From Verrucomicrobiota bacterium (GTDB lineage: Bacteria > Verrucomicrobiota > Lentisphaeria > JABSQK01 > JAJFLO01): 64,000 bases of DNA. Under the pieces are notes generated by a model, which saw nothing but the letters and a program-made list of their open reading frames with translations, was not told the origin of the DNA and ran no database searches. The stretch lies in assembly GCA_021772635.1 (NCBI GenBank), contig JAJFLP010000113.1, positions 813 through 64,812 on the forward strand, in the 5' to 3' direction. Positions within the stretch are counted from its first letter, which is position 1. The number at the start of each line of letters is the position of its first letter. Shown here piece after piece: positions 2,337 to 62,815 of this stretch. The position numbers and the translations under genes were made by a program.

Positions 2337-2432
2337 GTATACTGAGCATCTTCGAGTTTTCGAAATACCGTTCGGAATCTTATAGCTGATAAATTCAAAG
2401 TTGTTCAAAAATTCGACTGCTTGCAGTCTAGC
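2337..2432. repeat. Modular intergenic repeat (tatactgagcatcttcgagttttcg ... aaaattcgactgcttgcagtcta)
   Basis: Near-identical inverted copy at 19688-19795. Shares modules with about 25 other loci in the window. Sits between two convergent genes. Confidence 0.8.
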
Positions 2433-2467: not shown

Positions 2468-5400
2468 TTACGACAACAGATATGTCAGATCGTCGGCGCT
2501 TAGGTCCTTGATGATACTGCTGTCCTGCTCAATGATACTCGCAACGAGTTTCATTTTCTTTCGTTGCAGGTCACCAATCCGTTCCTCTACTGTTCCTTTG
2601 CTGACTAGGCGATATGCGAAAACGTTCCGTGTCTGCCCGATTCGATGTGTCCTGTCTATCGCTTGAGATTCCACGGCTGGATTCCACCATGGATCGAGGA
2701 TAAATACGTAATCAGCAGCCGTCAGGTTCAAGCCTAAGCCCCCAGCTTTCAGGCTGATAACAAATACTTTGTACTTATCGTCATTCTGAAACGCGTCTAC
2801 TTTCTCCTGCCGGTTTTTGGTTTTGCCATCAAGGTAGAGATACGGGATATCGCTGCCGTCGAGCTTTTTCCGGAAGATGCTCAAAAAACTCGTAAATTGA
2901 GAGAAGACGAGTGACTTATGCCCCTCATCGATTACTTCAGTTAATAGTGCCCAAAGACTTTCGAGTTTTGCACTCGGCTCGTTTAGGTATTCTTTGTTAA
3001 CCAGCCCGGGATGACACGCTGCCTGACGTAATCTCAGGAGCGCTTCAAGAATTTTGATTTTCGCCTTCCCTATTCCGTTGCTACGAACGTTTCCGGCAAG
3101 GTTAACCTGGTAATATTGCCTGAGTTCGTTATACATCGACTCCTGTTTCCCTTCCATTTCGCAGTACAGAACCTGTTCGGTTTTTTCGGGCAAGTCAGTT
3201 GCGACCTGGGACTTTGTCCTTCTGAGGATAAACGGGCGAATCGCTCGCTTTAGCACTGCTCGCGACTCGCCACTGCTAATCCTGTTAAAAGCTGAAACCT
3301 TCCCTAGCATTCCAGGATTAAGAAATTCGAATAACGACCAAAGTTCGCCAATGTGGTTTTCTATGGGAGTTCCACTCAAGGCTAATCGATGGTCTGCTTT
3401 TAACAGTCGCGTCGCTTTCGCGGCCTGCGATTTCGAATTTTTTATCGCTTGCGCCTCGTCGAGCACTGCATAGTCGAATTCGATGTCTGCTAATTCGAGA
3501 ATATCACGCCGTAATGTCCCGTATGTGGTAATGATCACGTCGTGTTTCACGAACTTCGAACGAAGGTTTTCCCTATCTAAACCGCGGTACATTAAAATAC
3601 TGAGTTCAGGAGTGAATTTCCTGGATTCTTCTTGCCAGTTGAATAGCAGAGATCGGGGTACGATGATGATGGAGGGTTTTCTATTATTCTCGCACCCGGT
3701 CTCATTTCTTTGAGTTTCGAGTAGTGCCAGAACCTGTACTGTTTTTCCCAGTCCCATGTCGTCAGCGAGACATCCGCCAAGCCCGAAATCACGTAAGAAG
3801 AGAAGCCAACCGAGACCATCTTTTTGATAATCTCTAAGTGTGCCATTGAATACGCCGTCGGGATCTCTTGGCTTCAGCCGATCGAATTTCACTAACTCCT
3901 CGCGAATTTTCGCGAACGCTTTATCGACATCTACCTCCGGTCGACTAATAATAAGCGCATCGAGTAGCCCGGCTTGATTTTTCTTGAAACGGATGTGTTC
4001 CGCTTTGCGCCGGCCCAGGCCAAATAAAGTAGAATATTTCTTGAGCCACTCTTCAGGAATAATACCGAACGAGCCATCTTCCAGGACAATCTGGGACTCA
4101 CCCTTTTCGACCGCGGCCAAGAGCTGTGGCACCCCCACAGTCAACGCATCGAAACGCATAGTCCCGTGTAATTCAAACCAATCGATATTCGAGCTAATTT
4201 TAATATTGAAGGCCCCCGCTTGGCGATATCGCTTTCGGTCAACCTCAATACGCCATCCGTTTTTTAAGAGATTCGGGACTGCTTTGGTGAGATTGGCAGG
4301 GGTTGTCTGTAAATAGTCTGAACGCTGCAGGTGTTGGAGATGCTGCGCGAGAGGAAGGAATCCAGCGTCCACGAGCTCCTGCAGCGCAGATTCTTCCGCA
4401 TTCAGGTCTCGATCGTATACTTTTTCTTGCTTGTAATTAATAACGGATTTCGTACGACTTAATGCTGTAATAAGAATGTCTCCATATCTGAACTTCAACT
4501 CCGCTACCAATAGCGGTTTAGCCAGAGATACGTGTTTCTTCGTTTTGACTATCAACTCTTTTCCCGGCGCTTCGTATTCTGGCGTCAACCGCACTTCTTC
4601 CGGGAGTTCTATCGGTGGAGAATTGGGCATACCGTAGATATTCTCCAGCAACTCTGGACACTCGCGTACCGGCACCGAAACGGGGCCCTCACGTCTCAAT
4701 ACTGAGATCCATCCGAATGCATTGTGATCTCTTAGCTGCGAGGCTCGATTTTCCCAGAAAATTATACCGCCGGCAACGACCAGTATCGGAGCGTCAATTT
4801 CGAGCCGTTCTTCGCCGCGCTTGAAGAAACCGGCCAACTCGTAAGCCTCATTTTTCTGCGCAATACCAAGCCTGAACTCCCATGGTTCGCCGTCGTCCCA
4901 GCTCACCGTCATAAGGCCCGCGCCCGCTTCTCGCGCCCGAATATTGACTCTCCCGGAATTGCAAAGCAACTTCAGGATCTTCTCTTGTAACCCCGTTGTC
5001 AATACAAATCCGGATGGTGACTGTTGACGCGGCCGGTACTGTCCCTGACGGCTGGCGAAATCCGTTTGAGTCCCCAGCGCCATCGCGATAGCCTCTCGAT
5101 CCGTTTCATTATTCAAACTGCTAACGAAATCACTATCAATACGCTGTTTCCGCTGCTTTCCCCAACTCCCGTCTTTCGGTCGTTCCGATACCAGGACGTT
5201 TACATAAATTCCCCCGTTCTCCAGGGATTGATCGACGTCAATAAGATATGTCAGTCGACGTTCTTTCGGTTCTACATTCAGCCCGTGATTGTTCAGGTCC
5301 TGGTTAACGCCGGCAAACACTGTTTGCCAGTTTCTTGGACGACCGACATGACCACCCTGAAGAATCTCTTCGTTCGCGCCTGTGACTTCCGGATCAGATG

Positions 5401-5848: not shown

Positions 5849-6147
5849 TATCGCTTTATATACTGATCGTGTTCGAGTTTTCGGTGACTTGAAGGTGATT
5901 GTTCATCGGGTTCGGAACTTGGTTTAGGCGGTTCAAAAGGTGCTCGGGACAACCCCTAAGTTATACCACGGAATGCAATTTGACTGCACGCAGTTGAATA
6001 TTTAGTGTCTGAAGGGAAACCCTCGCGAGCCGGGTTGCCGACGCATGTTCGGGAGATTCATCCTTCACGCTGTTACGTTCATACCCAAAGGTATGGGCTA
6101 ACAGCGTGAGACAACGAGGCTTTGTTGTACTATACTGCAGGCATTAT

Positions 6148-6283
6148 ACCAACAATCACGGAGTTTTCGTCCGGATTACCGAGACTCCGCTCGTGCGGAG
6201 AGAGAAAAATCGTTTGGAGTCTCTTACGCAATCATTTTAAAGTTCTCCAAAAATTGTACCGCTTGCGGTATAATTGGTGTTCA
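6148..6283. repeat. Modular intergenic repeat ending in palindrome tgtaccgcttgcggtataatt
   Basis: Modules ggagtctcttacgcaatcatttt and ccgctcgtgcgg shared with other copies. The palindrome ends 13 nt before the ABC transporter ATG. Confidence 0.75.
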
Positions 6284-8130: not shown

Positions 8131-8203
8131 CATGAAGGACATGAAGAGCATGAAGTAAAGACTTTTTATATTTTCCCCTTCATGCTCTTCATGTCCTTCA
8201 TGG
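8131..8203. other. Perfect 25-bp inverted repeat (hairpin) catgaaggacatgaagagcatgaag / cttcatgctcttcatgtccttcatg
   Basis: Seen directly. 23-nt loop. Lies about 90 nt downstream of the ABC transporter stop. No strong T-tract follows. Confidence 0.6.
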
Positions 8204-8803
8204 TTGTAAAGCATTATTCGGTTGGCAGATTGCTCCGTTGAAACTAAACCGGTTTTGAGGCTGTTTATCTCGTTCGTTTTCGGCTCGATTGGGCGGCCTT
8301 TAGAGTTCAAGCTTTAGCGCTATTTGTTGATTGGCAGATGCAATCCCGCATGCGGGATTGAACTCCAAAATACCGTCGAACCCAAGTTTCCTATTATATT
8401 AACCGGGTCGGTACGGCCCGGACGGTTGCTCCCTTGAAATTTGGTCATTTTGACACACTGAAGTGTGAACTCCAACAGGTGCTACTCGCATACCAAAAGA
8501 TTAGTGTTGTTAAGGTCCCCGTTGGAGTTCACGCTTTCGCGTGTCATAACCTGAGTTTCGTTATATAATAATTCTGCTGTCCAGCAGAAGCGCGTCGGTC
8601 GACGGTCCTACGAAACTTGGCGGAAATCTTCGATATTGTGAGCCCGTTTCGTATTGTAAAATATGGGTTCAAAAGGAAACCCACTGGAGGGAATCAACCA
8701 CCCCGCCGCAAAGCAGACGGGGTATCGGCTTTGGAAATAGTTTTGGTATCGCGGTAAACTGCGGAGAATGAAACCCCACTATGTAGGTGCAAAAGGAGAG
8801 ACC

Positions 8804-9409: not shown

Positions 9410-9535
9410 TTAACGGCGATTTCGCGACGCTAATTTGATGAGATTATACGAACTCCAGTCAGGTTTTCGACAAGTTTTCCAAAATCTTTGCGCGATCATC
9501 GAAAATTCGACTGCTTGCAGTCTAGGAACAGGGGT

Positions 9536-10408: not shown

Positions 10409-10671
10409 ATGTGGAGGCGCTGTCGTCAGTGGCGATCTCTTTCTGTCGAATTTGTTCCGAAATATAGACAATCGCGGCTGGGACAGCGCCTCCCACATTC
10501 AGAAACATATCGCCTGATTGAATTCGGCAACAATCTGCATAAGTGGACTTTATTGGCAAATCAGTTCATCAAAGGACAAGCGAAATCGGTAATAATTCTC
10601 GAGAACGCCTGGTCGATGCCAAAAGCCTTTGATCATGGAATACACACATAAAACCGGAAAAATAACTGATT

Positions 10672-10866
10672 TATACCGGACGTCTTTACCCAGCAAGCGG
10701 GACGAAAAATCGTTCGGAGTCTCTTTCGCAGTCATTTAAAAGTCGTCTCTCCGTATTCTCGGAGTCCGCTCGGGCAGACCGCATAAGCGTTCCGCACAGA
10801 CGGGATCCTCGCTGATGCGGGACGAGTAATCCAGACCGAAAATTATACCGCTTGCGGTATACTAAC
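10672..10866. repeat. Modular intergenic repeat (composite; ends in tataccgcttgcggtata)
   Basis: Contains the ggagtctctt..., ccgtattctcggagtccgct... and tcctcgctgatgcgggacgag modules. The palindrome ends 7 nt before the serB ATG. Confidence 0.8.
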
Positions 10867-12544: not shown

Positions 12545-12680
12545 CCTGTTCGGAGTCTCTTACCCAATCATTTTGAAGTCGCCTACGCGTAAGCGTCCCG
12601 TACAGACGGGATCCTCGCTCATGCGGGAAGAGTCTCGGATAATCCGGATCGAAAATTATACCGCTTGCGGTATACACTAG
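12545..12680. repeat. Modular intergenic repeat (ends in tataccgcttgcggtata at 12657-12674)
   Basis: Same modules as 10672-10866. The palindrome lies 23 nt upstream of the REC gene ATG. Confidence 0.8.
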
Positions 12681-12697: not shown

Positions 12698-13126
12698 ATG
12701 CGAATTCTAATTGTCGATGATGACGTCCACAATCGCAATCTCTTAGCAGCGGTGTTGAACGATTTTGGCGACTGTATGTTTGCGAGTGATGGCGCGGAGG
12801 CGATTGCTGCTTATCAGCAAGCAATTTCGGAGGGAGTTCCGTATAATCTGATTACGCTCGATATTGAAATGCCGAATATGGATGGTCACGAGGCCTTAGC
12901 CGCCATCAGAAAGCATGAAAAAGACCGGAATATTGCGAGCGAGGATGGTATTGTCGTTATAATGATTTCGGCGTGTGATGATGACGAAAATCTTGAGAAA
13001 TCTTTCAAAGAGGCATGTACGGCATATATCCTCAAGCCAGTTGACCCGGAAAGTTTGATCTCGACGATGAAAAGAATGGGAATCCTCGCCAGCGACAAGG
13101 GGCAATTCGATCCAGGATTCATATAG
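12698..13126 (+). CDS. Stand-alone response regulator receiver (CheY-like)
   Basis: MRILIVDDD...LDIEMPNMDG...YILKPVD receiver-domain motifs with no output domain. Confidence 0.8.
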   Translation: MRILIVDDDVHNRNLLAAVLNDFGDCMFASDGAEAIAAYQQAISEGVPYNLITLDIEMPNMDGHEALAAIRKHEKDRNIASEDGIVVIMISACDDDENLEKSFKEACTAYILKPVDPESLISTMKRMGILASDKGQFDPGFI

Positions 13127-13140
13127 TCTGAAAGTTTCCC

Positions 13141-13290
13141 CGCCTCCGGCGGTCCGTATGGACGGATTCTTCCGATATCAGCGTGAATCCGGTCAATACG
13201 GGACACTTACGCGGTACGCACGAGCGGACTCCGAGGATGCGGAGAGCGCCAAGGGCGACCAATTTTCGGTCCGGATTCCCGCGCAACCTT
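13141..13290. repeat. Modular repeat fragment (gtccgtatggacgg, acgagcggactccgag modules)
   Basis: Shares the modules found at 18060-18085 and 34741-34770. Confidence 0.6.
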
Positions 13291-14498
13291 CAATTCGGCG
13301 GACCTTTCGGCAGCGATACGGTAACGGTCGTCCCCTTGCCGGCTTCGCTTCGAATCGATATTTCTCCACCGACTGGTTTCAGTAATTCGCGGCATGTATA
13401 AAGTCCTAAACCGGTTCCAACGGGCTCGTCTCCGTTGTTAGCCTCGCCTCTCGCCGGTTTAGAGGTATAAAAAGGGTCGAAAATCTTCTTAATGTCGTCT
13501 GGGGGGATACCACAGCCGGTATCAGTCACTTCCATGAAGACAACGGATTCATCCTGATAGGTGCGTATTTTTAATCGCTTTTTGTAGTCGTCGACCTTCC
13601 ACATGGCATCCAGTGCATTGTTCACGAGGTTATGTAATATTTGCGATAGTATCGATGCATCCACGAGTTGGCACTCGATAGCGTCATCAAGTTCGATTTC
13701 TTTTTTAACTTTATTCTTAAAATGAGAGTCAATATTCAGTAGATCCAATTCCTTCCGTATTACGTTATTAATATTCGTGATTCGGGAAATCGGCTTTTGC
13801 CCCTCGCGATTGACTACCAGGAGATCGTCTGTTAGCTGGTTTATTCGACCAGTTACTTCGTTAATAACTTCACAGTGACCTTTAATCACATTATCGTCGT
13901 TTTCTGTAGATAGATCCAGAATCAATTTGTTGTAGCCGCTAATGATCCCAAGCGGATTTTTCAGATTATGAACAACCCCTTGTATCATTCGACCGATAAT
14001 CGCGGATTTTTCCTGCTCCACCAGTTTTTGGGATTTCTGTTCAACAAGATTTTCTAAATTTTCGTTGAGTTCGGCTAATTCGCGATTCTTTTCTTCCAGG
14101 CTCTTTGTGAGCGTGGCAATCGTCAGATGAGTTCGGATACGTGTTAAAATTTCCTCGTTCTGAAAAGGTTTCGTGACATAGTCGACAGCACCGGATTTGA
14201 GACCTTTAACAACATTTGATGTCTCGCTTAGAGCTGTCATAAAAATGATTGGAATGCTCGCCGTGCATTTGCTTTTTTTCAATAATTCGCAGGTTTCGAA
14301 CCCATTTAATCCGGGCATCATAATATCCAATAAAATCAAATCCGGATCCGTTTCCGTCGCGCGATCGATTGCTGTTTGTCCGTCGCGCGCAAATAATGTT
14401 TCAAACCCCGCTTGTTCCAGGATATCAAAAAGCACATTCAAGTTCGTCGGATTATCGTCGACGATTAGGATGGTGGAAGATAGGAGTGGTTTAACCAT
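13290..14498 (-). CDS. Hybrid response regulator-histidine kinase (REC + HisKA-like + HATPase_c)
   Basis: N-terminal REC (ILIVDDNPTNL...LLDIMMPGLNG). C-terminal kinase motifs HNLVNNALDAM and GTGLGLYTCRELL. ATG lies 2 nt after the upstream Amt-HK stop. Confidence 0.8.
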   Translation of the reverse strand: MVKPLLSSTILIVDDNPTNLNVLFDILEQAGFETLFARDGQTAIDRATETDPDLILLDIMMPGLNGFETCELLKKSKCTASIPIIFMTALSETSNVVKGLKSGAVDYVTKPFQNEEILTRIRTHLTIATLTKSLEEKNRELAELNENLENLVEQKSQKLVEQEKSAIIGRMIQGVVHNLKNPLGIISGYNKLILDLSTENDDNVIKGHCEVINEVTGRINQLTDDLLVVNREGQKPISRITNINNVIRKELDLLNIDSHFKNKVKKEIELDDAIECQLVDASILSQILHNLVNNALDAMWKVDDYKKRLKIRTYQDESVVFMEVTDTGCGIPPDDIKKIFDPFYTSKPARGEANNGDEPVGTGLGLYTCRELLKPVGGEISIRSEAGKGTTVTVSLPKGPPN

Positions 14499-17400
14499 TG
14501 TTTCGCAACTTGTTTATGATTGATAAGATCTGCGCATCGTCGAACTGCTCTGCTAATTCCCGTAACTTTATTACAAGAGCGTTATATTTGCTATCCAATC
14601 GGTCGATATCATCTAAAGTCTTCAAAAGTCCTTTGATGTCGCCCCTCTGGGAATAACGAATTATCGCATCGGTATTTTCCTGCGGTGGTAGAACCCAGGC
14701 GAACGAATCGGTTGAACCTGTCGAGTCGGAGGTCGGCGTTTCGCTAGTATTATTATCGAATATTACGTCCAAACCGAGTTCGTCACTCACGAGTTTCAGA
14801 AGTTGCCTGCGATCGACCGGATCGGACAGGAACCCCTGGCAACCCCCTTTCATCGACGTTCCTTGATATTCTTGGGCTACAGAGCCGGAAATAAGAATAA
14901 TTGGGACGCCGCTAAGAGTGGAAAATTTTCGTATTCTCTCAATATCCTGATATCCTCCGTCCGGATCCGGAGCGACAAGGTCGACAATCAGCAAATCCGG
15001 CTTGTTAGAAATCGATCCCTCAACGGCGTTGCTGTCAAGGGTGATTTCTTGAATCAAAAAACCGGATGGTTTTAGCATGTTGGTTAATAATATGCCGTTT
15101 TCTTTATTGTCAGCGGCAATCAGAATTCGGTGATTCTGACCGCAAATCTTCTTTATTTGGCGATTGTCGTTAATCTTCATGTCGCCCACGCCCGTAGCCG
15201 TTACAGCAATCATATCGATGTCGAACCAAAAGGTCGTACCCGATGGCGGTGTACTTTCTACTCTCAGATTTCCCCCCATTAATTCTACTAATTTCTTACT
15301 GATCGCCAGCCCCAGGCCTGTACCACTAATAGAATCGCGCAGATCTCCGACTCGCTGAAATTCCACAAAAATTCTTTCGAGATTGTCGGTGGCGATACCG
15401 ACGCCTGTGTCCGTGACGCTGAAGCGGAGACGGACATAATTTGATTGCCATTGATCCGAGGGTAATGAGAGGACTGTTTGCGTGTGGTCGGGAGGTATAT
15501 CTTTCAAGATTTCAACACAGAAGGTTATGCTCCCGTTATCAGTAAATTTGATCGCATTACCGATAAGATTCAGGAGAATCTGGCGCAACTTTTTCTCGTC
15601 TGCGTATAAATGCTTTGGCAACGCATCATCCGGTTGAAGGATAAAAGCGAGCCCTTTTTGTTCTGATCGAAGTTGGAACATTGCGCGAAATTCACCGAGG
15701 AACTCGGGCAGTTCGAAAACATTGAGGTCAAGATTAAATTCTCCAGCCTCAATTTTTGATAAGTCGAGGACTTCATTTATGAGATCAAGTAAGTGTCGCC
15801 CCGATGACTCGATAATCTTCGCGGCTTTCAGCTGGTCGCCAGTCAGCCTTTCGTCTGCGGTTAGAATTTGCGCATACCCCAGTATTCCATTTAGCGGCGT
15901 CCTATGTTCGTGACTCATATTTGCCAAAAATTCACTTTTCGCTAGTGACGCCGCATCTGCAGCTTTTTTGGCGTCCTTAAGCGATTCCAAATTCTGCTTG
16001 TGGTTGGTGATGTCGCGAAATGTTCCAGTATAGAATACATCATCATCGACAGTGGCTTCCGCGAATGAGGCTTCCATTGGAAATGAGCATCCATCAGCCT
16101 TCTTCCCAGCCAGTTCGCGACATAATTTCTCGGCAGCAGCGCGTTCAAGAATCGTTTTGATCTCTCCTGTCGACGCGTCGCGCGACGACTCAAAATCAAA
16201 ACATACCAGTTCGGTTATCGGTTTCCCTTTGACATCGGCGAGTTGACATCCGAATGCAGCCTCGGCGCATGGATTAAGGGTGGAAATAAGCAGATCATTT
16301 TTCGAAAACGTAACGATCCCATCCATCGCGGACTGCACGATCGCCTCTGTTTTGGCCACGGCGTGTTCCAATGCCCCCATGACCTGGTTGTATAATGATC
16401 CAATTTGACCGACCTCGGTAAATGGCTCAACCGGTACTCTTAGAGATAGATTTCCCGTTTTTTCCTGTTCCTTCATTACTGTGAACAATTCAATTAACTC
16501 CGAACGCTCACCGTGCTCCGTGATATTTAGGCCAGTTGCCTCATCTTTGAGACTGACGCGTATTGGATAAATCTTATTAAGAGTTTTCAGGAAAATGAAG
16601 GCGATGGAGAATGACCAGACGAAACAAGCGCAAATTCCTGAGATTTGCGCGATTATCTGTTCCATCTGTCCGAGTCCGGTTCCAAGCAACTTCGGATCAC
16701 CAAATAATCCGACGGCAAGTGTCCCCCAAATCCCCGCCCCGAGATGTACCGGAATCGCCGACACAGCATCGTCGATTTTGAATCGCAATAGCAGGTTATG
16801 GACCCCGTACATTACGGCTGCGCCGACGGTTCCGATAATCAGGGCTTCTACTGTACTGACAGCGTTGCATGCCGCTGTTATAGCGACGAGTCCCGCCAAC
16901 GCCCCGTTCATGATCAGGATAATATCGAAGTGTTTCTTTAAAATCAGATGGAGAATGATCGTCATCGTAAGACCTGCAGCGCCGCCGATAAGCGTATTGA
17001 ACAGGATTTTCGGGATATACTCATTTACCGTGAGCGTGCTCCCTCCCGTGAACCCGAACCAGCCGAACCACAAGAGCATAACACCGAGGACAGCGGATGG
17101 TATATTGGCAGCGGGGATCTTATTAACAGTACCGTCGCTTGAAAACCTGCCGGCACGCGGCCCGATCACAAGAAGAGCCGCGAGCCCCACCCAACCGCCG
17201 AGGCTATGAATAACGGTAGACCCGGCAAAATCTACGAACCCCCGCTCTGCCAGCCAGCCACCTAAGATTTCCCCGTCGATCCCATTCCAGACCCAATGAC
17301 CGAAAATCGGGTATATGACAACCGAAACAATTATCGTTATACCTATATAGCTCGTAAAACGGATTCGCTCAGCGACCGCGCCGGATAAAATCGTAACCGC

Positions 17401-17706
17401 CGCACCGCAGTACATGAACTGAAATAATAAAAAAGCGGAGAACCAGGAATCTCGTTCATCGACATTGGGTAGAAAATGTGTCGAACCGATCAGGCCGAAC
17501 TTTGATGCCCCGAACATGAGACCGTAGCCGATCATCCAGTAAGCGATTGCCGATATACCAAGGTCAGTGATGTTCTTGGAGGCGACGTTGATATTGTTCT
17601 TACTGCGCGTCAGTCCGGTTTCGAGACACAGAAAGCCTGCCTGCATTAGAAATACCATGCCGGAGCACGAAACTAACCATAAGATGTCAACCGACGATTT
17701 TTCCAA
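14491..17706 (-). CDS. Ammonium transporter (Amt) domain fused to PAS, histidine kinase and receiver domains
   Basis: N-terminal approx. 400 aa are Amt-like (DILWLVSCSGMVFLMQAGFLCLETG). They are followed by a HisKA H-box ANMSHEHRTPLNG, HATPase GTGLGLAISKKLVELMGG, and a REC domain HRILIAADNKENG...LLIVDLVAPDPDGG. Apparent TTG start with GGAG SD. Confidence 0.85.
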   Translation of the reverse strand: MEKSSVDILWLVSCSGMVFLMQAGFLCLETGLTRSKNNINVASKNITDLGISAIAYWMIGYGLMFGASKFGLIGSTHFLPNVDERDSWFSAFLLFQFMYCGAAVTILSGAVAERIRFTSYIGITIIVSVVIYPIFGHWVWNGIDGEILGGWLAERGFVDFAGSTVIHSLGGWVGLAALLVIGPRAGRFSSDGTVNKIPAANIPSAVLGVMLLWFGWFGFTGGSTLTVNEYIPKILFNTLIGGAAGLTMTIILHLILKKHFDIILIMNGALAGLVAITAACNAVSTVEALIIGTVGAAVMYGVHNLLLRFKIDDAVSAIPVHLGAGIWGTLAVGLFGDPKLLGTGLGQMEQIIAQISGICACFVWSFSIAFIFLKTLNKIYPIRVSLKDEATGLNITEHGERSELIELFTVMKEQEKTGNLSLRVPVEPFTEVGQIGSLYNQVMGALEHAVAKTEAIVQSAMDGIVTFSKNDLLISTLNPCAEAAFGCQLADVKGKPITELVCFDFESSRDASTGEIKTILERAAAEKLCRELAGKKADGCSFPMEASFAEATVDDDVFYTGTFRDITNHKQNLESLKDAKKAADAASLAKSEFLANMSHEHRTPLNGILGYAQILTADERLTGDQLKAAKIIESSGRHLLDLINEVLDLSKIEAGEFNLDLNVFELPEFLGEFRAMFQLRSEQKGLAFILQPDDALPKHLYADEKKLRQILLNLIGNAIKFTDNGSITFCVEILKDIPPDHTQTVLSLPSDQWQSNYVRLRFSVTDTGVGIATDNLERIFVEFQRVGDLRDSISGTGLGLAISKKLVELMGGNLRVESTPPSGTTFWFDIDMIAVTATGVGDMKINDNRQIKKICGQNHRILIAADNKENGILLTNMLKPSGFLIQEITLDSNAVEGSISNKPDLLIVDLVAPDPDGGYQDIERIRKFSTLSGVPIILISGSVAQEYQGTSMKGGCQGFLSDPVDRRQLLKLVSDELGLDVIFDNNTSETPTSDSTGSTDSFAWVLPPQENTDAIIRYSQRGDIKGLLKTLDDIDRLDSKYNALVIKLRELAEQFDDAQILSIINKLRNNG

Positions 17707-17943: not shown

Positions 17944-18115
17944 ATAGTTCCTGCTGGCCAGCAGAACGACGGCTGTTCAATATATCGTTCGGAATCCCTT
18001 AGATGATTTAGGTTAAAAGTCTTCTCTCCGTATTCTCGGAGTCCGCTTGTGCGGACCGCACGAGCGGAGTCCGTCCATACGGACCAAATATTATACTGCT
18101 TGCAGTATAGATCGA
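17944..18115. repeat. Modular intergenic repeat (ctgctggccagcag, ccgtattctcggagtccgcttgtgcggaccgcacgagcgg, tatactgcttgcagtata)
   Basis: Perfect 18-bp palindrome at 18092-18109, 23 nt upstream of the DUF899 gene ATG. Confidence 0.8.
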
Positions 18116-19687: not shown

Positions 19688-19795
19688 TTTTAGACTGTAA
19701 GCAGTCGAATTTTTGGGACGACTTTGAATTTGTCAGCTATAAGATTCCGGTATGAAATTCATCCCGTATGCGAGACAAAGGTGCTCAGTATACGG
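19688..19795. repeat. Inverted copy of repeat 2337-2432
   Basis: The reverse complement matches the tatactgagca...ccggaatcttatagctga.aaattcaaagt...caaaaattcgactgctt.cagtcta modules. Confidence 0.8.
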
Positions 19796-22794: not shown

Positions 22795-22927
22795 TTATAC
22801 CGAACGCCTTCGAGTTTTCGACCCGGCGTTCTGCTGGCCAGCAGAATACCGGTTAAAAAAATCGTTCGATATCTCTTACGTACTTGGTTTGAAGTCATCC
22901 GAAAATTGAACTGCTTGCAGTATAATC
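22795..22927. repeat. Modular intergenic repeat (MITE end tataccgaacgccttcgagttttcga + ctgctggccagcag + ctgcttgcagtata)
   Basis: Same TIR sequence as the canonical copy at 46696-46954. Confidence 0.8.
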
Positions 22928-24690: not shown

Positions 24691-24862
24691 CTAGCCTGAT
24701 TATTTCATGCGATTCGTCGCGAGAGTACTTAACTCGCTCATAATAGATCGATTAGAGAAAACTTGACGGCGAAAGTGAATATACATTTGCTGAGATGTAA
24801 AGTTGAGCTAATCGGCTTATTCGGGCAGAGATTAGGGCTTGTAGCAGAATACTGATGAATTA
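24691..24862. repeat. Copy 1 of an approx. 175-nt paralogous noncoding element (begins ctagcctga)
   Basis: Roughly 80% identical to 24986-25157. Lies in the 740-bp divergent intergenic region between the Hsp20 operon and the HMA gene. No conserved ORF. Confidence 0.7.
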
Positions 24863-24985
24863 TTCTGGTTAGCAGAACCGGGAAAATATAAAGGGTACCC
24901 CTTCAATCATACGGGCTTATTCTTGATGGCAGACGATATCGATGATATAATTGGAAATGCGAGTGAATCAGCTAAGAACAGTTCA

Positions 24986-25157
24986 CTAGCCTGAATAATT
25001 CACGCGATTCGTCGCGAGAGAACTTAACTCGTTCATAATAAAACGATTGGAGAAGGCGCCACGGTGAAAGTGTATTTTCATTCACTTAGATGTGAAGTCA
25101 AGCCAATCGGTTTATTTGAGCAGAGATTAGGGCTCGTAGCAGAATACTGGTGAATTA
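24986..25157. repeat. Copy 2 of the approx. 175-nt paralogous noncoding element
   Basis: See copy 1. Conserved segments are tcgtcgcgagag.acttaactcg.tcataat, agcagagattagggct.gtagcagaatactg.tgaatta. Confidence 0.7.
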
Positions 25158-25246
25158 ATCAGACAAGAAAGATAAAGCGTGTCATATCTTGAATTTAACA
25201 TATTGGCCGGAACAATCGCCAATTCAAAACGTCTTGGTTTAACATT

Positions 25247-27739: not shown

Positions 27740-27892
27740 GCTGGACCTATACTGCAAGCAGTAGAACTTTGCTCCGGACTGCACGAGGTCAGGAAGTTCT
27801 GTGTGGATACTGGGGATTTGCGTTCGTAGATTCTGTATACCGAAAATTATGGAATTTTCGACCAAGCGTCGGCTAAGGCGGGACATGATGCC

Positions 27893-27990
27893 GGGTAAAA
27901 ATATACCGTTCGGAAATTCTTGGCTGATAAATTCGAAGCTATCCAAAAATTGTACTGTATGCAGTATATTTCCTGACGCCAGTAATTCAA
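27893..27990. repeat. Modular repeat fragment (ataccgttcgg...ataaattcgaagc...aaaaattgtactgtatgcagtata)
   Basis: Matches modules of the 2337-2432 copy. A short palindrome copy also occurs at 27751-27768. Confidence 0.7.
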
Positions 27991-30339: not shown

Positions 30340-30610
30340 TTTGTCTATTTTCAGTCCAGGCTCAATGTCATTCAGTTAAGGAATCATATTATTCGGGACC
30401 GTTGGTCCGGATGGCCGAGACTCTTCCCGCATGAGCGAGGATCCCCTCTGTGCGGGACGCTTGTGCGGAGAGGTCACGCTTCAGCGTGGTATTTCTTTAC
30501 CAGGAACTTAAGAACCACGCCCCGCGACTGCGTGGGCGCAAACTCCAACATGCGCCTTGAACGTGTCCCGTTTCCTTAACTTAATGACATTGAGTCCAGG
30601 CTGACACTGT
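30340..30610. mobile_element. MITE-like element with approx. 26-bp terminal inverted repeats (tccaggctcaatgtcattcagttaag / cttaacttaatgacattgagtccaggct)
   Basis: TIRs at 30353-30378 and 30574-30602 flank an approx. 200-bp GC-rich hairpin-rich core. A partial TIR-like match lies at 31133-31150. Confidence 0.6.
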
Positions 30611-30639
30611 ATAAGGAGAAGTCTTTTAACTAACCACGC

Positions 30640-30680
30640 AAGAGATATCGAACGATATTTCGAAAACTCGAACGCGTTCG
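30640..30680. repeat. Solo MITE end / hairpin (cgaacgatatttcgaaaactcgaacgcgttcggtata)
   Basis: Reverse complement matches the TIR tataccgaacgc.ttcgagttttcgaaa. Confidence 0.7.
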
Positions 30681-30699
30681 GTATAGATGCAGCCGATAC

Positions 30700-33014: not shown

Positions 33015-33190
33015 TATACTGCAAGCAGTACAATTTTTCGACGACTCAATCGTGGTAGCGTATGGGATTCCGAGCAATATTTCTCTCCGTATTCTCGGAG
33101 ACCGCTCGTGCGGACCGCATAAGCGAGGGTCTCGGGTAATCCGGACGAAAACTCGCTGACGAATTATGATACCGACAGCGAAGGAACTAT
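33015..33190. repeat. Modular intergenic repeat beginning with palindrome tatactgcaagcagtaca
   Basis: The palindrome at 33015-33032 lies 25 nt upstream of the srkA start on the minus strand. Followed by the ccgtattctcggagaccgctcgtgcggaccgcataagcg and gggtaatccggacgaaaac modules. Confidence 0.8.
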
Positions 33191-34125: not shown

Positions 34126-34710
34126 ATGGAAAGATCAGCTAAGAAAAGAAAGCGTAGACCTAATACTTCCGACGCGCGATTACTGTTTGTATCGATTATT
34201 GGACTCGCTTTACTATTCGTTTTTTTGATTAATTTGCCGATAGCGCAAAACCTGCTCCTGGCAGTTGATAAATTTACGGCATTCACATTTTCTACATTGA
34301 CTAACGCTTTCGGTTACGAGTCCCAATTGAGTGACATATTGGTGCGAATCCAGGCTGACAATACGACAAGGTCCGTGGTCATTGGTTACGGTTGTGACGG
34401 AGTGCTGGCTTATCTGATTTTGCTTAGCGCAATCTTGCCTTTTCCTTGCCGAAAGTGGTATAAGGTCATCGGCGCACTCGTAGGCATGGTATTTGTTTTC
34501 ATCATAAACCAAATTCGTTTGGCCGGGCTTACGGTCGTTCTGTTCAAATTGAAGGACTTGTCAGATTTTGAGTTGTACCACGTTGGGTACGGGCAGGTAT
34601 ATGCGATTGTAATGGTCTTCCTGTTTTGGTCTCTATGGGCATCTCAAGTCGTAAAACGAGGGCGACGCTCAGGAGATAAAATGCCGCGCGCGGCAGCCGC
34701 CGGCGAATAA
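34126..34710 (+). CDS. Small polytopic membrane protein, exosortase/archaeosortase-like core (tentative)
   Basis: Five predicted TM helices. Cys in GYGCDG and an NQIR motif resemble the exosortase Cys/Arg signature, though at 194 aa it is much shorter than canonical exosortases. Confidence 0.35.
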   Translation: MERSAKKRKRRPNTSDARLLFVSIIGLALLFVFLINLPIAQNLLLAVDKFTAFTFSTLTNAFGYESQLSDILVRIQADNTTRSVVIGYGCDGVLAYLILLSAILPFPCRKWYKVIGALVGMVFVFIINQIRLAGLTVVLFKLKDLSDFELYHVGYGQVYAIVMVFLFWSLWASQVVKRGRRSGDKMPRAAAAGE

Positions 34711-34711
34711 A

Positions 34712-34985
34712 TCTATACCGCAAACGGTATAATTTTTGGTCCGTATGGACGGACTCCGCTCGTGTGGAGAAGACTTTTAACCTGTCACCTAAGGGATTCC
34801 GAACGATATAGACTGCAAGCAGTCGAATTTTCGATCCCGCATGCGGAATCACGGTAGGCAAATATTTTAGAAAACTTGTCGGCGTGTGTCGCGTTGCGAC
34901 GACGTCGCTCACGCGAAAACCTGACTGGAGTTGGTATATTTTTATCCGGTATTCTGCTGGACAGCAGAACGGGGAATTAAACCCA
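34712..34985. repeat. Modular intergenic repeat (composite, approx. 270 bp)
   Basis: tataccgcaaacggtataattt, gtccgtatggacggactccgctcgtgtggag, agactgcaagcagtcgaattttcgatcccgcatgcggaatc and ttctgctggacagcagaac. Confidence 0.8.
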
Positions 34986-36740: not shown

Positions 36741-36947
36741 TATACCGAACGTCTTCATCCCGCATGCAGGATGAAAAATCGTTCGGAGTCTCTTACACAA
36801 TCATTTTGAAGTCGTCTCTCCGCATTCTCGGAGTCCGCTTATGCCGCCGGCACAAGCGGACTCCGAGAATGCGGAGAGAAATATCGTTCGAAATCTTATT
36901 CGCGGTGAGATTCAGGTCGTTCAAAACCTCAACTGCTTGCAGTTTAT
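36741..36947. repeat. Modular intergenic repeat with a long internal palindrome (ctccgcattctcggagtccgcttatgccgccggcacaagcggactccgagaatgcggagag)
   Basis: MITE end tataccgaacgtcttc. Roughly 60-bp near-perfect palindrome at 36826-36888. Confidence 0.8.
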
Positions 36948-37094: not shown

Positions 37095-37586
37095 TTGCCG
37101 AATGATTCATTTTTCAGGAAATACCGTCACCGTCGATTACCCAAGATCAATTTCCATTTTCATGAACTCACGGTCGACAATAAGGCCGTTGTCCTTTTGG
37201 AAATTGGGGCTGCTTTTCGGCATCCGGTGCAGTTCAAGAATACAGAGTACATCCGTATCGGTTCGTATAAGAAGAAACTCAAAGATTTCCCCGAGAATGA
37301 GCGCGAACTATGGCGTGTATTCGATAAAACGCCATTCGAACAGGAGATTGCCGCAGAAAACGTGAGCTCCGATGAGTTCCTCCGCCTATTGGACTATCCC
37401 AGCTTTTTCGATCTTCTACAATTACCATTACCGGAATCGCGAGAAGGCATTTTGGGCGGATTGGAGGCAGAGGAAATGATCGGGCAAAGTCAAAGCGGCA
37501 ATTGGAATATTACGAATCTTGGAGCCGTATTGTTCGCAAAGAAACTAGCTGACTTTCGTACATTAAACGCAAAGCAGTCCGTGTAA
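37095..37586 (+). pseudogene. Fragment of an AlbA_2/Schlafen-like domain regulator, truncated at both ends
   Basis: YIRIGSYKKKL... segment resembles the distal AlbA_2 domain. The ORF stops abruptly where the rpsO 3' duplicate begins. Confidence 0.3.
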
Positions 37587-37587
37587 T

Positions 37588-37696
37588 TTAAGCCGCTTTA
37601 TGATGTCCAGATACCGCGTGTGCGCAGTGCGATTGAGGTACTTAGGCAATTTCCTTCGACGATTCACCACAGCAATAAGCCCACTTCTTGAATGGG
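37588..37696 (-). pseudogene. Duplicated fragment of the rpsO 3' end (approx. 109 bp, about 90% identity to 40232-40340)
   Basis: Direct alignment of ...gccgctttatgatgtccagataccgcgtgtgcgcagtgcgat.gaggtactta.gcaatttcc... Encodes an S15 C-terminal peptide, ...[24 protein letters not shown]. Confidence 0.8.
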
Positions 37697-38010: not shown

Positions 38011-38120
38011 AGATAGACTGCAAGCTGTCGAATTTTCGATCCCGCATGCGGGATCACAGTAGGCAAAGATTTTATGAAACTTGTCGACAGCCTGACTGGA
38101 AGTTAGGATAGTAGCGACGG
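38010..38120. repeat. Modular repeat (agactgcaagctgtcgaattttcgatcccgcatgcgggatc...ggcaaagattttatgaaacttgtcgacagcctgactggaagttagg)
   Basis: Near-identical to 34812-34935 and 51177-51268. Confidence 0.8.
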
Positions 38121-41642: not shown

Positions 41643-41721
41643 GGGAATGGATTTTCGATTGACGATTTTCGATTGACGATTGAGGCTGCAAGAATTTTAG
41701 AAATCGCAATGTCGTTCTGTG

Positions 41722-46695: not shown

Positions 46696-46954
46696 TATAT
46701 ACCGAACGCCTTGGAGTTTTCGAAATTCCAAACTTCAAGCGGTATGGTAATTGTACACGCTCGAACCTTTCGCGGGCGAGCTGGAGCAGATACAGTACGT
46801 AACACAAAACCCGCAAGCCTGACAAGTATACAACAAGCAGTACAATTTTCGGTCCGGATTAACCGAGACTCTCGCTTATACGGAGATGACTTCAAACCAA
46901 GTACGCAAGAAATATCGAACGATTTTTCGAAAACTCTAAGGCGTTCGGTATACC
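46696..46954. mobile_element. Canonical MITE-like element with 28-bp terminal inverted repeats (tataccgaacgccttggagttttcgaaa ... tttcgaaaactctaaggcgttcggtata)
   Basis: TIRs match at 27 of 28 positions. The approx. 200-bp internal region contains the palindrome module tatacaacaagcagtacaatttt. No coding capacity. Confidence 0.7.
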
Positions 46955-49923: not shown

Positions 49924-50059
49924 TAGACCGTGGTATTTCTTCGTTTTGAAGTAAGTGTCTTTTTTAGACCGCACGCACTCGAATTTTTGACCAATAACAG
50001 GTATTATTACGCATGGGATTCGTAACGGGATTTGGTTCCGCATGCGGGACCGCGGTCAT

Positions 50060-50150
50060 GAGTATACTGCAGGCAGTACAATTATTGAAAGCCTTCAAAC
50101 TTTCCACCTAAGGGATTCCGAGCGATATTTCAAGAACTCAATGGCGCTGG
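50060..50150. repeat. Modular repeat (atactgcaggcagtacaattattgaaagcc...aagggattccgagcgatatttcaagaactc)
   Basis: Shares modules with 34780-34810. Confidence 0.7.
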
Positions 50151-51169
50151 GTATACAACCCGCTACATTTTCCGATTTCTACTTACTTGAGACTATGGGA
50201 CTATTCACAAAAGACATTCACCCTTTGGAAGCGTACGTTCAAGGCGGGTTTCTTTGCTCGAAATGCAAAAAATTCATTGAGCTCGAAGGTTTACATCCGC
50301 TTGAAATGGGCCGCTGTCCGTATTGCGATACGCCGAACTTCATACCACAACGTATAAGCCAGTTTTGGTTATTTTACCCGCTTGGCGGCGGTGGTATGGG
50401 TGCGGTTTACAAGGCATATCATGAGGACGTCCGTGACGAGTTCTTCGCCGTAAAAGTACTCCCTCGGGAAAAAAAGACAGACCCGGAACTAATAGAGAAT
50501 CTTCAGTTGGAAGCTACCACGGTCACAGCGCTTGGATCACATCCGTGCATAATTGGCGGCATTGAGACGGGTTTCGAGGATGGCGAACACTATCTCGCGA
50601 CACAGTTCATTTCCGGCGAACGCCTGGACAAAAGAATCGATCGCCTCGGGAAACTGCCGGAGTTTGAAGTGGTCTCTATCGCCCTTCGCCTATTATCCGC
50701 GGAAGCGCATATTTACAACCAGGGTTTTCTCTTCCGCGATATGAAACCTGAGAACGTCATGATCACAGAGAAAAATGGTGCGTATCTTTATGACTACGGG
50801 ATTTGCCTCGACGTTGAAGAGGCGCAGAATCAGGCGGGGGATTATGTTGAGGGATCGCCGTTTTACATGCCGCCTGAACGCTTGTCCGGCGGCACCGAAG
50901 GAGCATATAGCGAAATCTACAGCCTCGGGATGGTACTTTATAATACCCTCGCGGGGAAAACATACTTCTCTGCAAAAGAGTTGAAGGAATTGGCCCGCAA
51001 GTTGGTGCAATCGGTGCGGTTGTCGAATATGGACAGCAAAATGAAAGCGATCACTCCGGAGCTCGCCATGATTATTGATAAAATGATTAAACGTGATCCA
51101 GAGAAGCGGTACCAGAATTTTGCGGACGTGGAAAAGGACTTCATTATATTTTTAAATGGGCAATTTTAA
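50142..51169 (+). CDS. Ser/Thr protein kinase with N-terminal zinc ribbon
   Basis: Zinc ribbon CSKC...CPYC. Kinase motifs GGGGMGAVYKA, AVKVL, FRDMKPENVMI. Start placed after the repeat element, at 50142. Confidence 0.7.
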
Positions 51170-51172
51170 ATA

Positions 51173-51268
51173 ACTAGACTGCAAGCAGTCGAATTTTCGA
51201 CGATCTCTTGCCATGGTAGGCAAAGATTTTAGAGAACTTGTCGAAAACTTGACTGGAGTTAGTATATC
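51173..51268. repeat. Modular repeat (agactgcaagcagtcgaattttcgacg...ggcaaagattttagagaacttgtcgaaaacttgactggagttagtat)
   Basis: Near-identical to 38010-38120 and 34812-34935. Sits immediately after the kinase stop, so it may act as a terminator. Confidence 0.8.
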
Positions 51269-54186: not shown

Positions 54187-54414
54187 TATTACAGGTCCTT
54201 AATTTTATTCGGATCATCTTCTAGATCTCGATCGGTATTTCGAAAATCCGGTCTACAGTTCCTTCGCCGATATTCGAAAACTCGATTGCTTAAAGTCTAC
54301 TATTGCATTTCTTTTCGATAGTCCATACATGTATAATTTTTCCCGCGACAGTCAAATCTGATCCTAAAGATTTTCTCCGTCAACAACCAACCGTCCTGGT
54401 ACGGCCTTAGCATA

Positions 54415-58564: not shown

Positions 58565-59980
58565 ATGACGCCCCAAGAAGTAATTAAGTTGATGGAAGAA
58601 CAGTCCATAAAGTTTGTCGATTTCAAGTTTCAAGATTTCCCGGGAACATGGCAGCATTTCTCCGTCCCGGCACACACCTTCGATGAGGACACCTTTGAAG
58701 ACGGTCTTGGGTTCGACGGATCCAGCATTCGAGGCTGGAAAGCAATCAACGAGAGTGACATGCTGGTGATGCCTGATCCGGAAACCGCTTTCGTCGATCC
58801 GTTTCTTAGCAGCCCGACACTGTCGCTTACCTGTTCAATCGTCGATCCGATTACGAAACAGCCATATACAAGGGATCCACGGAACGTTGCGCGAAAATGC
58901 GCGGAGTACGTCAAGTCAACCGGGATAGCCGACGCGGTCTTCTTCGGCCCGGAAGCCGAGTTCTTCGTTTTCGACAACGTGAGGTACGCACAGGAGGCGC
59001 ACTATGCGCTTTACGAAGTGGATTCCGCAGAAGGGATTTGGAATTCTGATGCAAACGGAGGAGAACCGAACCTGGGCCATCGTCCAAGACATAAAGAGGG
59101 CTACTTCCCGGTGCCACCAGTTGATTCGCTTCAGGATCTACGCTCGGAAATGGTAACAACGCTGCTTGAAGTTGGCGTCGACATTGAGGCACATCATCAC
59201 GAGGTAGCAACAGCAGGCCAATGTGAGATCGATATGCGATTTGAAGAACTTTTACGCATGGCGGATCAGTTGATGATATATAAATACATCGTTAAAAACG
59301 TCGCGAAAAAGTTCGGTAAGACGGCAACGTTCATGCCGAAACCTGTCTACGGAGATAACGGTTCCGGAATGCATGTACACTCCAGTTTGTGGAAAGACGG
59401 CGCGCCGTTGTTTGCAGGAGACGGATATGCCGGTCTCTCGGAAACAGGGTTACACTACATAGGCGGAATACTAAAGCACGCCCCTGCCTTGATCGCTTTC
59501 TGTGCGCCGACAACGAATTCCTACAAACGACTCGTACCCGGATTCGAAGCACCTGTAAACCTGGCTTACTCGCAAAGAAATCGTAGTGCAGCGGTTCGCA
59601 TACCGATGTATTCGCCGAATCCCAAGTCAAAGCGAGTCGAGTTCCGGTGTCCGGATGCTTCTTGCAACCCCTACTACGCGTTTTCTGCAATCGCGATGGC
59701 CGGGATGGATGGTATTCTTAATAAAATCGATCCAGGCGCGCCAATGGACAAGGATCTCTACGATCTTGCTCCGGAGGAACTCGAAAATATTCCACAAGTT
59801 CCCGGTTCCCTGGAAGGCGCGATCGCCGCGTTGGAAAATGACCATGAGTTCCTTCTTAAGGGGGACGTATTTACTGAAGACGTCATTGAGACGTGGATAA
59901 GCTATAAGACTGAAACCGAAATAGAACCGTTGCGTCTGCGCCCGCACCCGTACGAATTCTACCTTTACTACGACTGCTAG
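58565..59980 (+). CDS. glnA: Glutamine synthetase type I
   Basis: GS beta-grasp and catalytic motifs, with a typical N-terminus. Confidence 0.9.
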
Positions 59981-59998
59981 ACTGCACGACAGTCTAAT
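59972..59998 (+). terminator. Hairpin tagactgcacgacagtcta directly after the glnA stop
   Basis: 7-bp stem tagactg/cagtcta with a 5-nt loop, followed by atttag. Member of the agactgc..gcagtct module family. Confidence 0.4.
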
Positions 59999-62689: not shown

Positions 62690-62815
62690 TTAGCAGCGAT
62701 CGAGACTATACTGCCCGCGATCTCTCCGCATAAGCGTCCCGTATCGACGGGATCCACACTCATGCGGGAAGAGTCTCGGGTAATCCGGACGAAAACCTGA
62801 AGACGTTCGGTATAA
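62690..62815. repeat. Modular intergenic repeat (tatactgcccgcgatctctccgcataagcg, tcccgtatcgacgggatc, gggtaatccggacgaaaac, gacgttcggtata)
   Basis: Shares modules with 52140-52200, 12590-12650 and 33120-33140. Confidence 0.8.

Follow-up and report, generated by a model that had tools for sequence, protein, structure and literature searches.

The results of our analysis indicated that the 18-nt palindrome scattered through the 64-kb stretch of DNA examined here (the window) is likely to be part of the terminal inverted repeats (TIRs) of a family of MITE-like, TA-targeting, non-autonomous elements. The initial annotation of this DNA had raised the idea that a mobile element might be distributing the palindrome to unrelated genes. 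This idea was borne out, since the palindrome was embedded in a larger repeat and relatives were found that lacked the element.

Three exact matches to the palindrome TATACYGCWWGCRGTATA were identified in the 64-kb window, at positions 10844-10861, 12657-12674, and 18092-18109. When up to 3 mismatches were allowed, we found 18 matches, compared to 0.10 expected from dinucleotide-preserving shuffles, which confirmed that the palindrome is a real repeat. All 18 matches were intergenic and none fell in long ORFs, in a window that was about 80% coding and about 20% non-coding. The coordinates originally given for the three exact copies were correct, and those of three other copies were shifted (34700 to 34714, 46838 to 46827, and 50065 to 50063). 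The original distances to start codons held for the copies at 6255 (14 nt), 9507 (12 nt), 12657 (23 nt), 18092 (23 nt), and 33015 (24 nt, minus strand). In the case of serB, the short distance that had been reported applied to the first ATG, which was 8 nt from the palindrome, and not to the second ATG, which was 26 nt away and was the start in all homologues and in the NCBI product (403 amino acids).

The inner flank of all 18 matches was CGAAAAT or a close variant, and conservation continued for about 40 nt beyond it. We think it probable that the palindrome is not a free-standing site but the outer, hairpin-forming part of one TIR, here called the P end, of the MITE-like elements. A repeat finder (families D1 to D20) and 17 copies aligned with MAFFT revealed a modular layout, in which a Q or S end came first and was followed, in some copies after a GC-rich hairpin cassette, by a core, optional hairpin cassettes, and the P end. 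Read inward, the P end was TA(T/G)ACYGCAAGCRGT(A/C)TA-ATTTTCG; in the orientation of the element layout, it was TCGAAAAT-T(A/C/G)(T/G)ACYGCTTGCRGT(A/C)TA. The opposite end was of the Q type (TATACCGAACGCCTTCGAGTTTTCGA) or the S type (TATACGAACTCCAGTCAGGTTTTCGACAAG). The core was about 40 nt long (CGTTCGGAGTCTCTTACGCAATCATTTTGAAGTC or a subfamily variant); the repeat finder and the alignment gave it as AAATATCGTTCGGAGTCTCTTACGCAATCATTTTGAAGTC or the core of a second subfamily. Further optional hairpin cassettes were CTCTCCGTATTCTCGGAG, GTCCGCTCGTGCGGAC, CCCGCATGCGGG, and TCTCGGATAATCCGGA.

In the inward direction, TATAC-N14-TTTTCGA was common to all three types of end (P, Q, and S), which thus formed imperfect TIRs. 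The S and P ends matched at 16 of 26 positions in inverted orientation, so the two ends of an element were only about 60% identical, and only one of them was a true palindrome. With the ends set in register, TA was present at the outer start of nearly all 45 ends. Whole elements were predicted to fold by end-to-end pairing into a long stem-loop, as a transcript or as a single strand; for example, the 92-nt element at 51175-51266 had a predicted folding energy of -32.7 kcal/mol (z = -4.9). The elements were 77 to 190 nt in size and non-coding, with no Pfam-bearing ORF, and the ORFs that overlapped them were artefacts, caused by starts that had been extended upstream. About 25 copies, whole or fragmentary, were counted in the 64 kb, and they summed to 2.8 kb, or 4.4% of the window, as shown in Table 1. 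The only match to Rfam 15 at the gathering score was a tRNA-Met, and permissive scans of two element-rich stretches yielded nothing relevant. Searches of the literature for the element sequence returned unrelated primer matches only.

Table 1. Elements and element fragments identified in the 64-kb window
Position	Strand	Feature	Context and details
2338..2430	+	Complete 93-nt Q-core-P element	Between convergent genes; palindrome 2413-2430; 2 nt to left stop, 37 nt to right stop
5859..5945	+	Q-end fragment	Upstream of SNF2 helicase gene (minus strand), 10 nt from its start
6131..6272	+	Element with inserted GC hairpin and core	P end 6255-6272, 14 nt before ABC transporter ATG; degenerate extra palindrome 6131-6148; S/Q-type end at 6145
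9445..9524	+	80-nt S-P subfamily element	P end 9507-9524, 12 nt before MYG1 ATG
10672..10861	+	190-nt element with GC-rich hairpin modules	P end 10844-10861, upstream of serB
12548..12674	+	Element without recognizable Q end	P end 12657-12674, 23 nt before response-regulator ATG
17976..18109	+	Core, GC hairpin modules, P end	P end 18092-18109, with DUF899 ATG 23 nt downstream; Q end not clear
19691..19793	-	Complete Q-P element	P end 19691-19708, 3 nt past a stop codon
21666..21758	+	Complete 93-nt Q-P element	Between convergent genes
22796..22924	+	Q-P element	P end 23 nt after hsp20 stop; Q end about 41 nt upstream of likely YfdX start
27748..27968	mixed	Two elements, tail to tail	P ends outermost
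27748-27835	-	Degenerate element of the tail-to-tail pair	P end 8 nt after a stop
27836-27968	+	Q-P element, partner in the tail-to-tail pair	
30610..30685	-	Core and Q end, P end missing	Q end 14 nt past stop of RRM-protein gene
33015..33172	-	Element with degenerate Q end	P end 33015-33032, 24 nt upstream of APH/srkA-like start (minus strand)
34714..34939	-	Two abutting elements, 34714-34808 and 34809-34939	34714-34808, P end 3 nt after a stop; 34809-34939, S-P subfamily
36776..36946	+	Composite of core, hairpin, second core, and P end	P end 36929-36946; hairpin about 70 nt, GC, near-perfect
38014..38110	-	S-P subfamily element	Upstream of darT; 92% identical to 34808-34881
46698..46952		Q-end fragment 46698-46750 and complete element 46827-46952 (minus)	Q end of 46827-46952 is 9 nt before start of poly(A) polymerase-family (CCA-adding-type) gene
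49965..50155	-	Two elements	Between murJ and Ser/Thr kinase gene; P ends 49965 and 50063
51175..51266	-	92-nt S-P element	5 nt from kinase stop, 2 nt from next ATG
54206..54300	+	Degenerate Q-P element	Divergent htpG/DUF58 intergenic region
59978..59996		Solo P-like hairpin TAGACTGCACGACAGTCTA	Opens with the 3-nt stop codon of glnA
62707..62814	-	Element with truncated P end, GC hairpin modules, and Q end	

A perfect 8+2+8 dyad had been described as the conserved form of the palindrome, and this form proved to be rare. Among 33 aligned P ends (from the window and from the sequences L094, L092, L006, and L007, which are introduced below), positions 2 and 17 were unpaired in 20 copies, and the stem that was kept consisted of 6 bp (positions 3 to 8 with 11 to 16) and a closing T-A pair; 87% of the cells in this alignment were paired. 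We observed paired changes at position 3/16 (UA 17, GC 13, and AU 1) and at position 6/13 (UA 21 and CG 9), and these counts mirrored a small number of subfamilies and should not be taken for numerous independent changes. Because complementarity was kept in each subfamily, the pattern pointed to a constraint on the hairpin and not to one protein that reads one half-site. The palindrome by itself folded weakly, at about -7 kcal/mol.

The elements pressed against gene boundaries by either end, at starts and stops alike. Placement of the palindrome upstream of start codons had been stressed in the initial annotation, and six P ends (6272, 9524, 10861, 12674, 18109, and 33015) were indeed located 12 to 26 nt upstream of starts in gene orientation. 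However, as many P ends (19691, 22924, 27748, 34714, 51175, and 59978) were located 0 to 23 nt after stops, and a seventh (2430) was 37 nt from a stop. Since 10 of the 21 P ends faced starts and 11 faced stops, and since Q/S ends also hugged gene boundaries, placement upstream of starts was only half of the picture. The Q/S ends in question were found past stops at 2338 (2 nt) and 30685 (14 nt), and 2 to 19 nt before starts at 5859, 46952, 51266, and 54206. In total, 16 of 20 element blocks came within 26 nt of a CDS boundary by at least one end, compared to 9.5 expected under random placement of each block in the intergenic region that contains it. The P value for this bias was ~4e-4 (0.017 by Fisher combination), a statistic that was inflated because some CDS starts had been chosen with the element positions known.

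The proteins encoded in the window, which traced to a 147-kb NCBI contig and to Logan run SRR15505516, were singletons at 90% identity, and the nearest named hits of SerB and of HtpG belonged to different phyla; close relatives were reached via SerB homologues, and syntenic relatives were reached via HtpG homologues. The sequence L091 came from a true relative, with a SerB that was 89% identical and a DUF899 protein that was 82% identical, and it contained no element in 21 kb; the regions upstream of its serB and DUF899 genes were plain. Similar results were observed with L090 and L097, which belong to one 8.78-Mb genome and contained no element in 43 kb (L097 is syntenic with the window at 52-60 kb), and with L096 (NCBI GCA_021772615.1), which is syntenic with the window at 41.7-54.2 kb and contained no element in 12 kb. 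Taken together, these four sequences were free of elements over 76 kb, syntenic sites included. The serB orthologues in L090, L091, and L092 and the DUF899 orthologue in L091 had no upstream palindrome, and the palindrome was absent from 80 metagenome serB loci (1.1 Mb; at most 70% identity).

Filled and empty sites could be compared at two loci. In L096, an ATGA overlap joins the kinase gene to the gene that follows it, whereas in the window these genes are separated by a 99-nt gap, 92 nt of which is the element at 51175-51266. At the second locus, glnA ends in YYDC-TAA in L097, whereas it ends in YYDC-TAG in the window, where the TAG opens the solo hairpin listed in Table 1. Deletion of GACTGCACGACAGTCTA (the solo hairpin and one TA) from the window sequence restored the TAA of glnA, although this was a single case that could be due to chance. 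Apart from glnA, the relatives were too diverged for empty sites to be recognized at the nucleotide level, and no target duplication was visible beyond the terminal TA.

Elements were present in other sequences. L094, which shares the MYG1-serB synteny, contained about 9 elements in 19 kb, and these had the same S and P ends and different cores. One of the L094 P ends was located 40 nt upstream of MYG1, and MYG1 in the window likewise has an upstream P end. In the MYG1-serB spacer, the L094 element was oriented opposite to that of the window, and element orientations in L094 were mixed over short distances. The T-run was longer in the L094 copies (5 to 7 T). A single S-P element was found in L092. 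A scan of GTDB genomes with the P end yielded at least 7 matches; among the 5 that were inspected, 3 were chance matches in coding DNA and two looked genuine. The latter two (L006 and L007) were in MAGs labelled Lentisphaerales and Victivallaceae, and their P-end copies were identical over 24 to 26 nt. The context of the copy differed in L007, and the L006 copy overlapped a stop between convergent genes. We found no genes common to the window and L006 or L007. The one match in viral contigs was a chance match in a coding tandem repeat. The patchy presence of the elements, their conserved ends and divergent interiors, the filled versus empty sites, and the glnA case argued for a mobile element that inserts at TA, and the same four features were a poor fit to a conserved regulatory site.

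Bacterial MITEs have been described as non-coding elements of less than 200 bp that have TIRs and 5'-TA-3' termini and produce long stem-loop transcripts (PMC2229807). The window elements were small and non-coding, had TIRs, and were present as many dispersed copies that differed in presence and absence between relatives. As for a target site duplication, TA started nearly all of the ends, and one reconstruction, at glnA, supported a TA duplication. The elements would multiply by transposition in trans through a mobilizing enzyme, and the target is probably the TA dinucleotide, which would be duplicated upon insertion. TA sites are expected to be common in stop codons, start-proximal spacers, and -10-like sequences, and insertion at TA would thus account for the tight fit of the elements against the edges of genes. 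When read inward, the short hairpin and the ATTTTCG that follows it may form a weak terminator-like signal or a 3' stabilizer; when read outward, TCGAAA-16 nt-TATAnn may form a candidate -35/-10-like arrangement that is completed by flanking bases. Any effect of this kind on neighboring genes would be a by-product of insertion and would not point to a regulon.

No transposase gene was found in the window. A search of the window and of about 190 kb from related loci revealed no cognate autonomous insertion sequence (IS) with the same TIRs, and because this search space was small, the absence counts for little. The IS630-type element located beside serB in L090 had a TIR (TAGTWCTTCGCAAATGAATTGATAC) that was unrelated to the element ends. 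Similarly, the Y1_Tnp gene in L091 was flanked by GC hairpins that were unrelated to the element ends, and its locus contained no elements.

The asymmetry of the ends and the presence of a single true palindrome are unusual for a DDE-type MITE and fit HUH systems as well. One alternative, which we consider unlikely, is that the P-end hairpin is recognized as single-stranded DNA by an HUH enzyme (Y1, RAYT- or IS200/IS605-type) and that the elements are hairpin doublets that owe their spread to this enzyme and not to a DDE transposase working on TIRs. This REP/REPIN-like reading was retained because true hairpin character is confined to one of the two asymmetric ends, glnA has a solo hairpin inserted at its stop, and the Lentisphaerales- and Victivallaceae-labelled MAGs contain the hairpin module in other settings, and because of a switch in element orientation, from 10 plus and 2 minus before 28 kb to 3 plus and 11 minus after this point, that would fit strand-specific single-strand insertion. 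Moreover, hairpin character is all that the P end strictly keeps: two positions show paired changes and one mismatch is conserved, which is also seen in REP/IS200-type hairpins. However, the orientation change was not accompanied by a GC-skew switch or a dif-like site, neither of which was found near 28-30 kb, and orientations were mixed over short distances in L094. In addition, there was no GTAG-type tetranucleotide beside the hairpin, the conserved flanks being an outer TA and an inner ATTTTCG; the window contained no Y1 gene; and the Y1_Tnp gene of L091 was in the element-free locus noted above. The Q and S ends also shared the TATAC and TTTTCGA blocks in inverted order, which is TIR-like.

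The P-end copies in L006 and L007 could mean that the hairpin module exists independently of the elements. In an extended form of the HUH alternative, which we also regard as improbable, the 18-nt hairpin and its A/T-run would be an autonomous module that is read as a DNA hairpin by an uncharacterized HUH/RAYT-like or other enzyme and is shared across distant genomes. Insertion would show a strand bias and would take place at the TA of stops and of spacers near starts, and the module would have been co-opted as a gene-boundary signal, namely a terminator inward and a promoter or 5' hairpin outward. If this were true, we would be dealing not with a plain MITE but with a REP/RAYT-like system that follows new sequence rules.

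We give little credence to a second alternative, in which the elements are cassettes selected by the host and their ends are kept as inward terminators and as outward promoters or 5' stabilizing hairpins. A consensus scan called P ends terminator-like at 2428, 6270, 10861, 12674, 19693, 33232, and 34714, and two ends (9445 and 21666) gave outward matches to TCGAAA-16-TATAAT. The P ends located just past stops (six within 23 nt and seven within 37 nt), the L006 copy that overlaps a stop, the longer T-runs in L094, and the P end found upstream of MYG1 in both the window and L094 were consistent with this idea as well. On the other hand, the stem is weak and the T-run in the window is only 4 nt long, and the overall counts of promoter-like and terminator-like signals were not clearly above those in shuffles. 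The element at 51175-51266 also splits genes that overlap in L096 and leaves only 2 nt before the ATG, so transcription seems to need read-through, and the same genes run without an element in relatives.

Some of these individual signals had been proposed in the initial annotation and fared differently. The sequence ggtataat, which had been taken for a -10-like hexamer, was mostly the junction between the inner palindrome and ATTTTCG and pointed into the element; outward TATAAT sequences formed with flanking bases were found only at 6255 and 22907. A terminator after stop codons is plausible, and it would be a weak one, with a 6- to 7-bp stem and only four T nucleotides; the P ends passed a loose consensus scan for Rho-independent terminators. 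A 5'-UTR hairpin before the Shine-Dalgarno (SD) sequence is possible for six genes, and the P-end hairpin did not sequester the SD in the predicted fold. It is also possible, judging from the sequence, that the elements have weak terminator or promoter side effects on their neighbors.

It is very improbable that the palindrome is the operator of a dimeric transcription factor, as had been proposed, or a common 5'-UTR riboregulator, and that it defines a regulon. Although the palindrome has dyad symmetry and six copies are located upstream of starts in gene orientation, it was always within the larger repeat and never alone in an operator-like manner, and half of the copies were after stops or between convergent genes. 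The genes downstream of P ends were functionally unrelated (ABC transporter, MYG1, SerB, REC, DUF899, and APH), and the orthologues in relatives, including those of serB and DUF899, had no upstream site. Furthermore, the half-sites co-varied (TATAC versus TCGAC; C-G versus T-A), which fits a structural constraint better than the specificity of a single protein, and there was no match in Rfam to support a riboregulator. Three other candidates were rejected: a sigma-54 promoter in CTGCTTGCA, in which the GG/GC spacing was a misfit by eye; a sigma-70 promoter inside the P end, since a strict scan called only two Q/S ends, AT from the flanks was needed, and totals were near those in shuffles; and integron attC/Xer sites, since, by inspection, there were no GTTRRRY/RYYYAAC boxes and no dif-like arm, and the genes were housekeeping genes on both strands.

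The MITE-like family favored here involves no new regulatory principle; the elements would be ordinary selfish DNA that may also affect neighboring genes. Their presence has consequences for how this DNA is read. ORFs and starts were over-extended into the repeats, as in the ORFs called at 6274, 9488, 12665, and 18049 and in the N-termini of the YfdX protein and the kinase, and at least one stop codon (that of glnA) was supplied by an element. In addition, a small mobile repeat of this type can wedge between tightly packed or overlapping genes and thereby alter operon structure in one lineage only.

The elements can be compared to several known systems. Like a Rho-independent terminator, an element read from outside has a hairpin followed by a T-run; unlike such a terminator, it has a short AT-flanked stem (about -7 kcal/mol) and only four T nucleotides, the signal is within a repeat, and at least one copy is between same-strand genes that overlap in L096. 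The elements resemble REP/BIME/REPIN sequences in that they have a short imperfect palindrome with paired changes, are extragenic and often located after stops or between convergent genes, form inverted doublets that fold into long hairpins, and have a mosaic modular build. They differ from REP/REPIN sequences in that no GTAG-type tetranucleotide is present, no RAYT gene was seen in the window, and the partner end is a half-palindromic TIR and not a second copy of the palindrome; the terminal TA is also a better fit to cut-and-paste MITEs. RUP of Streptococcus pneumoniae and other IS630-linked MITEs are small, have TIRs and TA termini, are spread through intergenic regions, and have an inferred TA target (PMC2229807). 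The window elements are similar in size, TIRs, TA termini, and intergenic spread, and the glnA reconstruction supports a TA target here. In contrast to the TIRs of RUP, which match those of IS630-Spn1, the TIRs of the window elements have no matching IS, and the IS630-type TIRs in L090 are unrelated to them.

In both function and architecture, the closest analogue appears to be the Correia/NEMIS element (CREE/NEMIS) of Neisseria. CREE/NEMIS are non-coding elements of about 100 to 155 bp with TIRs of about 24 to 26 bp that start with TA, they have length variants that are due to an internal insert, and they sit beside genes and are co-transcribed with them as long stem-loops (PMC2229807). CREE can also give rise to promoters at one end or at both (PMC2229807; PMC2649163). 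The window elements share with CREE/NEMIS the TA-starting TIRs, the length variants, the gene-proximal position, and the non-coding nature. We know of no sequence similarity between the window elements and the Correia TIR. The window elements also differ from CREE in that one end is an 18-nt palindrome, the two ends are more asymmetric, the host belongs to a different, uncultured lineage, and no IHF site was identified in them. Promoter, RNase III, and IHF functions have been demonstrated for CREE, whereas for the window elements such functions would be putative. Should the ends of the window elements work as terminators or promoters, they would make this family a Correia-like case in an uncultured lineage.

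The orientation of the palindrome-family elements changed along the window. When each element was read from its Q end to its hairpin-forming P end, 10 elements were on the plus strand and 2 on the minus strand up to 28 kb, and beyond that point 3 were on the plus strand and 11 on the minus strand. The change occurred at about 28-30 kb (Fisher exact test, roughly 0.002 by hand estimate), and neither a GC-skew switch nor a dif-like site accompanied it in the window. This pattern could be due to chance or to a replication-strand effect.

Short tandem repeats, namely GGTTGCT heptamers and a GATTTTCGATTGAC doublet, were located in the trp-operon spacers at 42366-42395 and 41652-41680. Because the counterpart spacers in the syntenic relative L096 were only 5 nt or overlapping, the operon spacers of the window are generally expanded.

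GC-rich hairpin cassettes (CTCTCCGTATTCTCGGAG, GTCCGCTCGTGCGGAC, CCCGTACAGACGGG, CCCGCATGCGGG, and TCTCGGATAATCCGGA) were found both within palindrome-family elements and on their own, and may be small palindromic insertions that belong to a second, nested family. A separate repeat consisted of a short hairpin plus GAACTCCAAC or its inverse, GTTGGAGTTC, and formed an inverted pair in places; it was also present in L096, a GC-rich relative without the palindrome family.

Two long inverted repeats were unrelated to the palindrome family. The one at 10409-10500 (TGTGGAGGCGCTGTC...GACAGCGCCTCCCACA) was directly 3' of the MYG1 stop codon, and its comparison with Rfam yielded nothing but weak sub-threshold noise; the other was at 8131-8215 (CATGAAGGACATGAAGAGCATGAAG...CTTCATGCTCTTCATGTCCTTCATG). 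Two 175-nt direct repeats (24691-24865 and 24986-25160; 83% identical, 295 nt apart) were located in the 742-nt intergenic region 5' of the gene at 25247. In L094, a relative carrying the palindrome family, a unit of roughly 100 nt (…AACGCGATCAATCATCGCT…CTCGTAGTAAGGCACGATTGGTGCCG…) occurred in about 5 tandem copies at 3560-4090, within an 833-nt intergenic region.

Positions of dispersed repeats and selected genes
Feature	Sequence	Position	Remark
GC-rich hairpin cassettes	window	10750-10835, 12583-12648, 13127-13289, 30380-30470, 36817-36880, 62724-62789	those at 36817-36880 form an almost perfect hairpin, about 70 nt long
Hairpin plus GAACTCCAAC or GTTGGAGTTC	window	8361, 8468, 8522, 30541	
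Hairpin plus GAACTCCAAC or GTTGGAGTTC	L096	12107, 12186	
Hairpin plus GAACTCCAAC or GTTGGAGTTC	L092 (relative with palindrome family)	3156	
Lone receiver	window	12698-13126	near fusion gene and hybrid kinase
Hybrid kinase	window	13290-14498	adjoins fusion gene
darT	window	38144-38737	between 112-nt repeat copies
Macro-domain gene	window	38734-39846	between 112-nt repeat copies
tRNA-Met	window	39974-40050	between 112-nt repeat copies
rpsO (S15)	window	40218-40481	minus strand

Among the signaling genes, one on the minus strand (14491-17706) encoded a 1071-aa protein in which an ammonium transporter is fused to PAS, HisKA/HATPase, and receiver domains.

A 112-nt direct repeat (37584-37695 and 40227-40338; 89% identical) was a duplication of the rpsO 3' end, and its two copies flanked darT, the macro-domain gene, and tRNA-Met. 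With this att-like duplication, the 37.6-40.2 kb region resembles an integrated DarTG toxin-antitoxin island.
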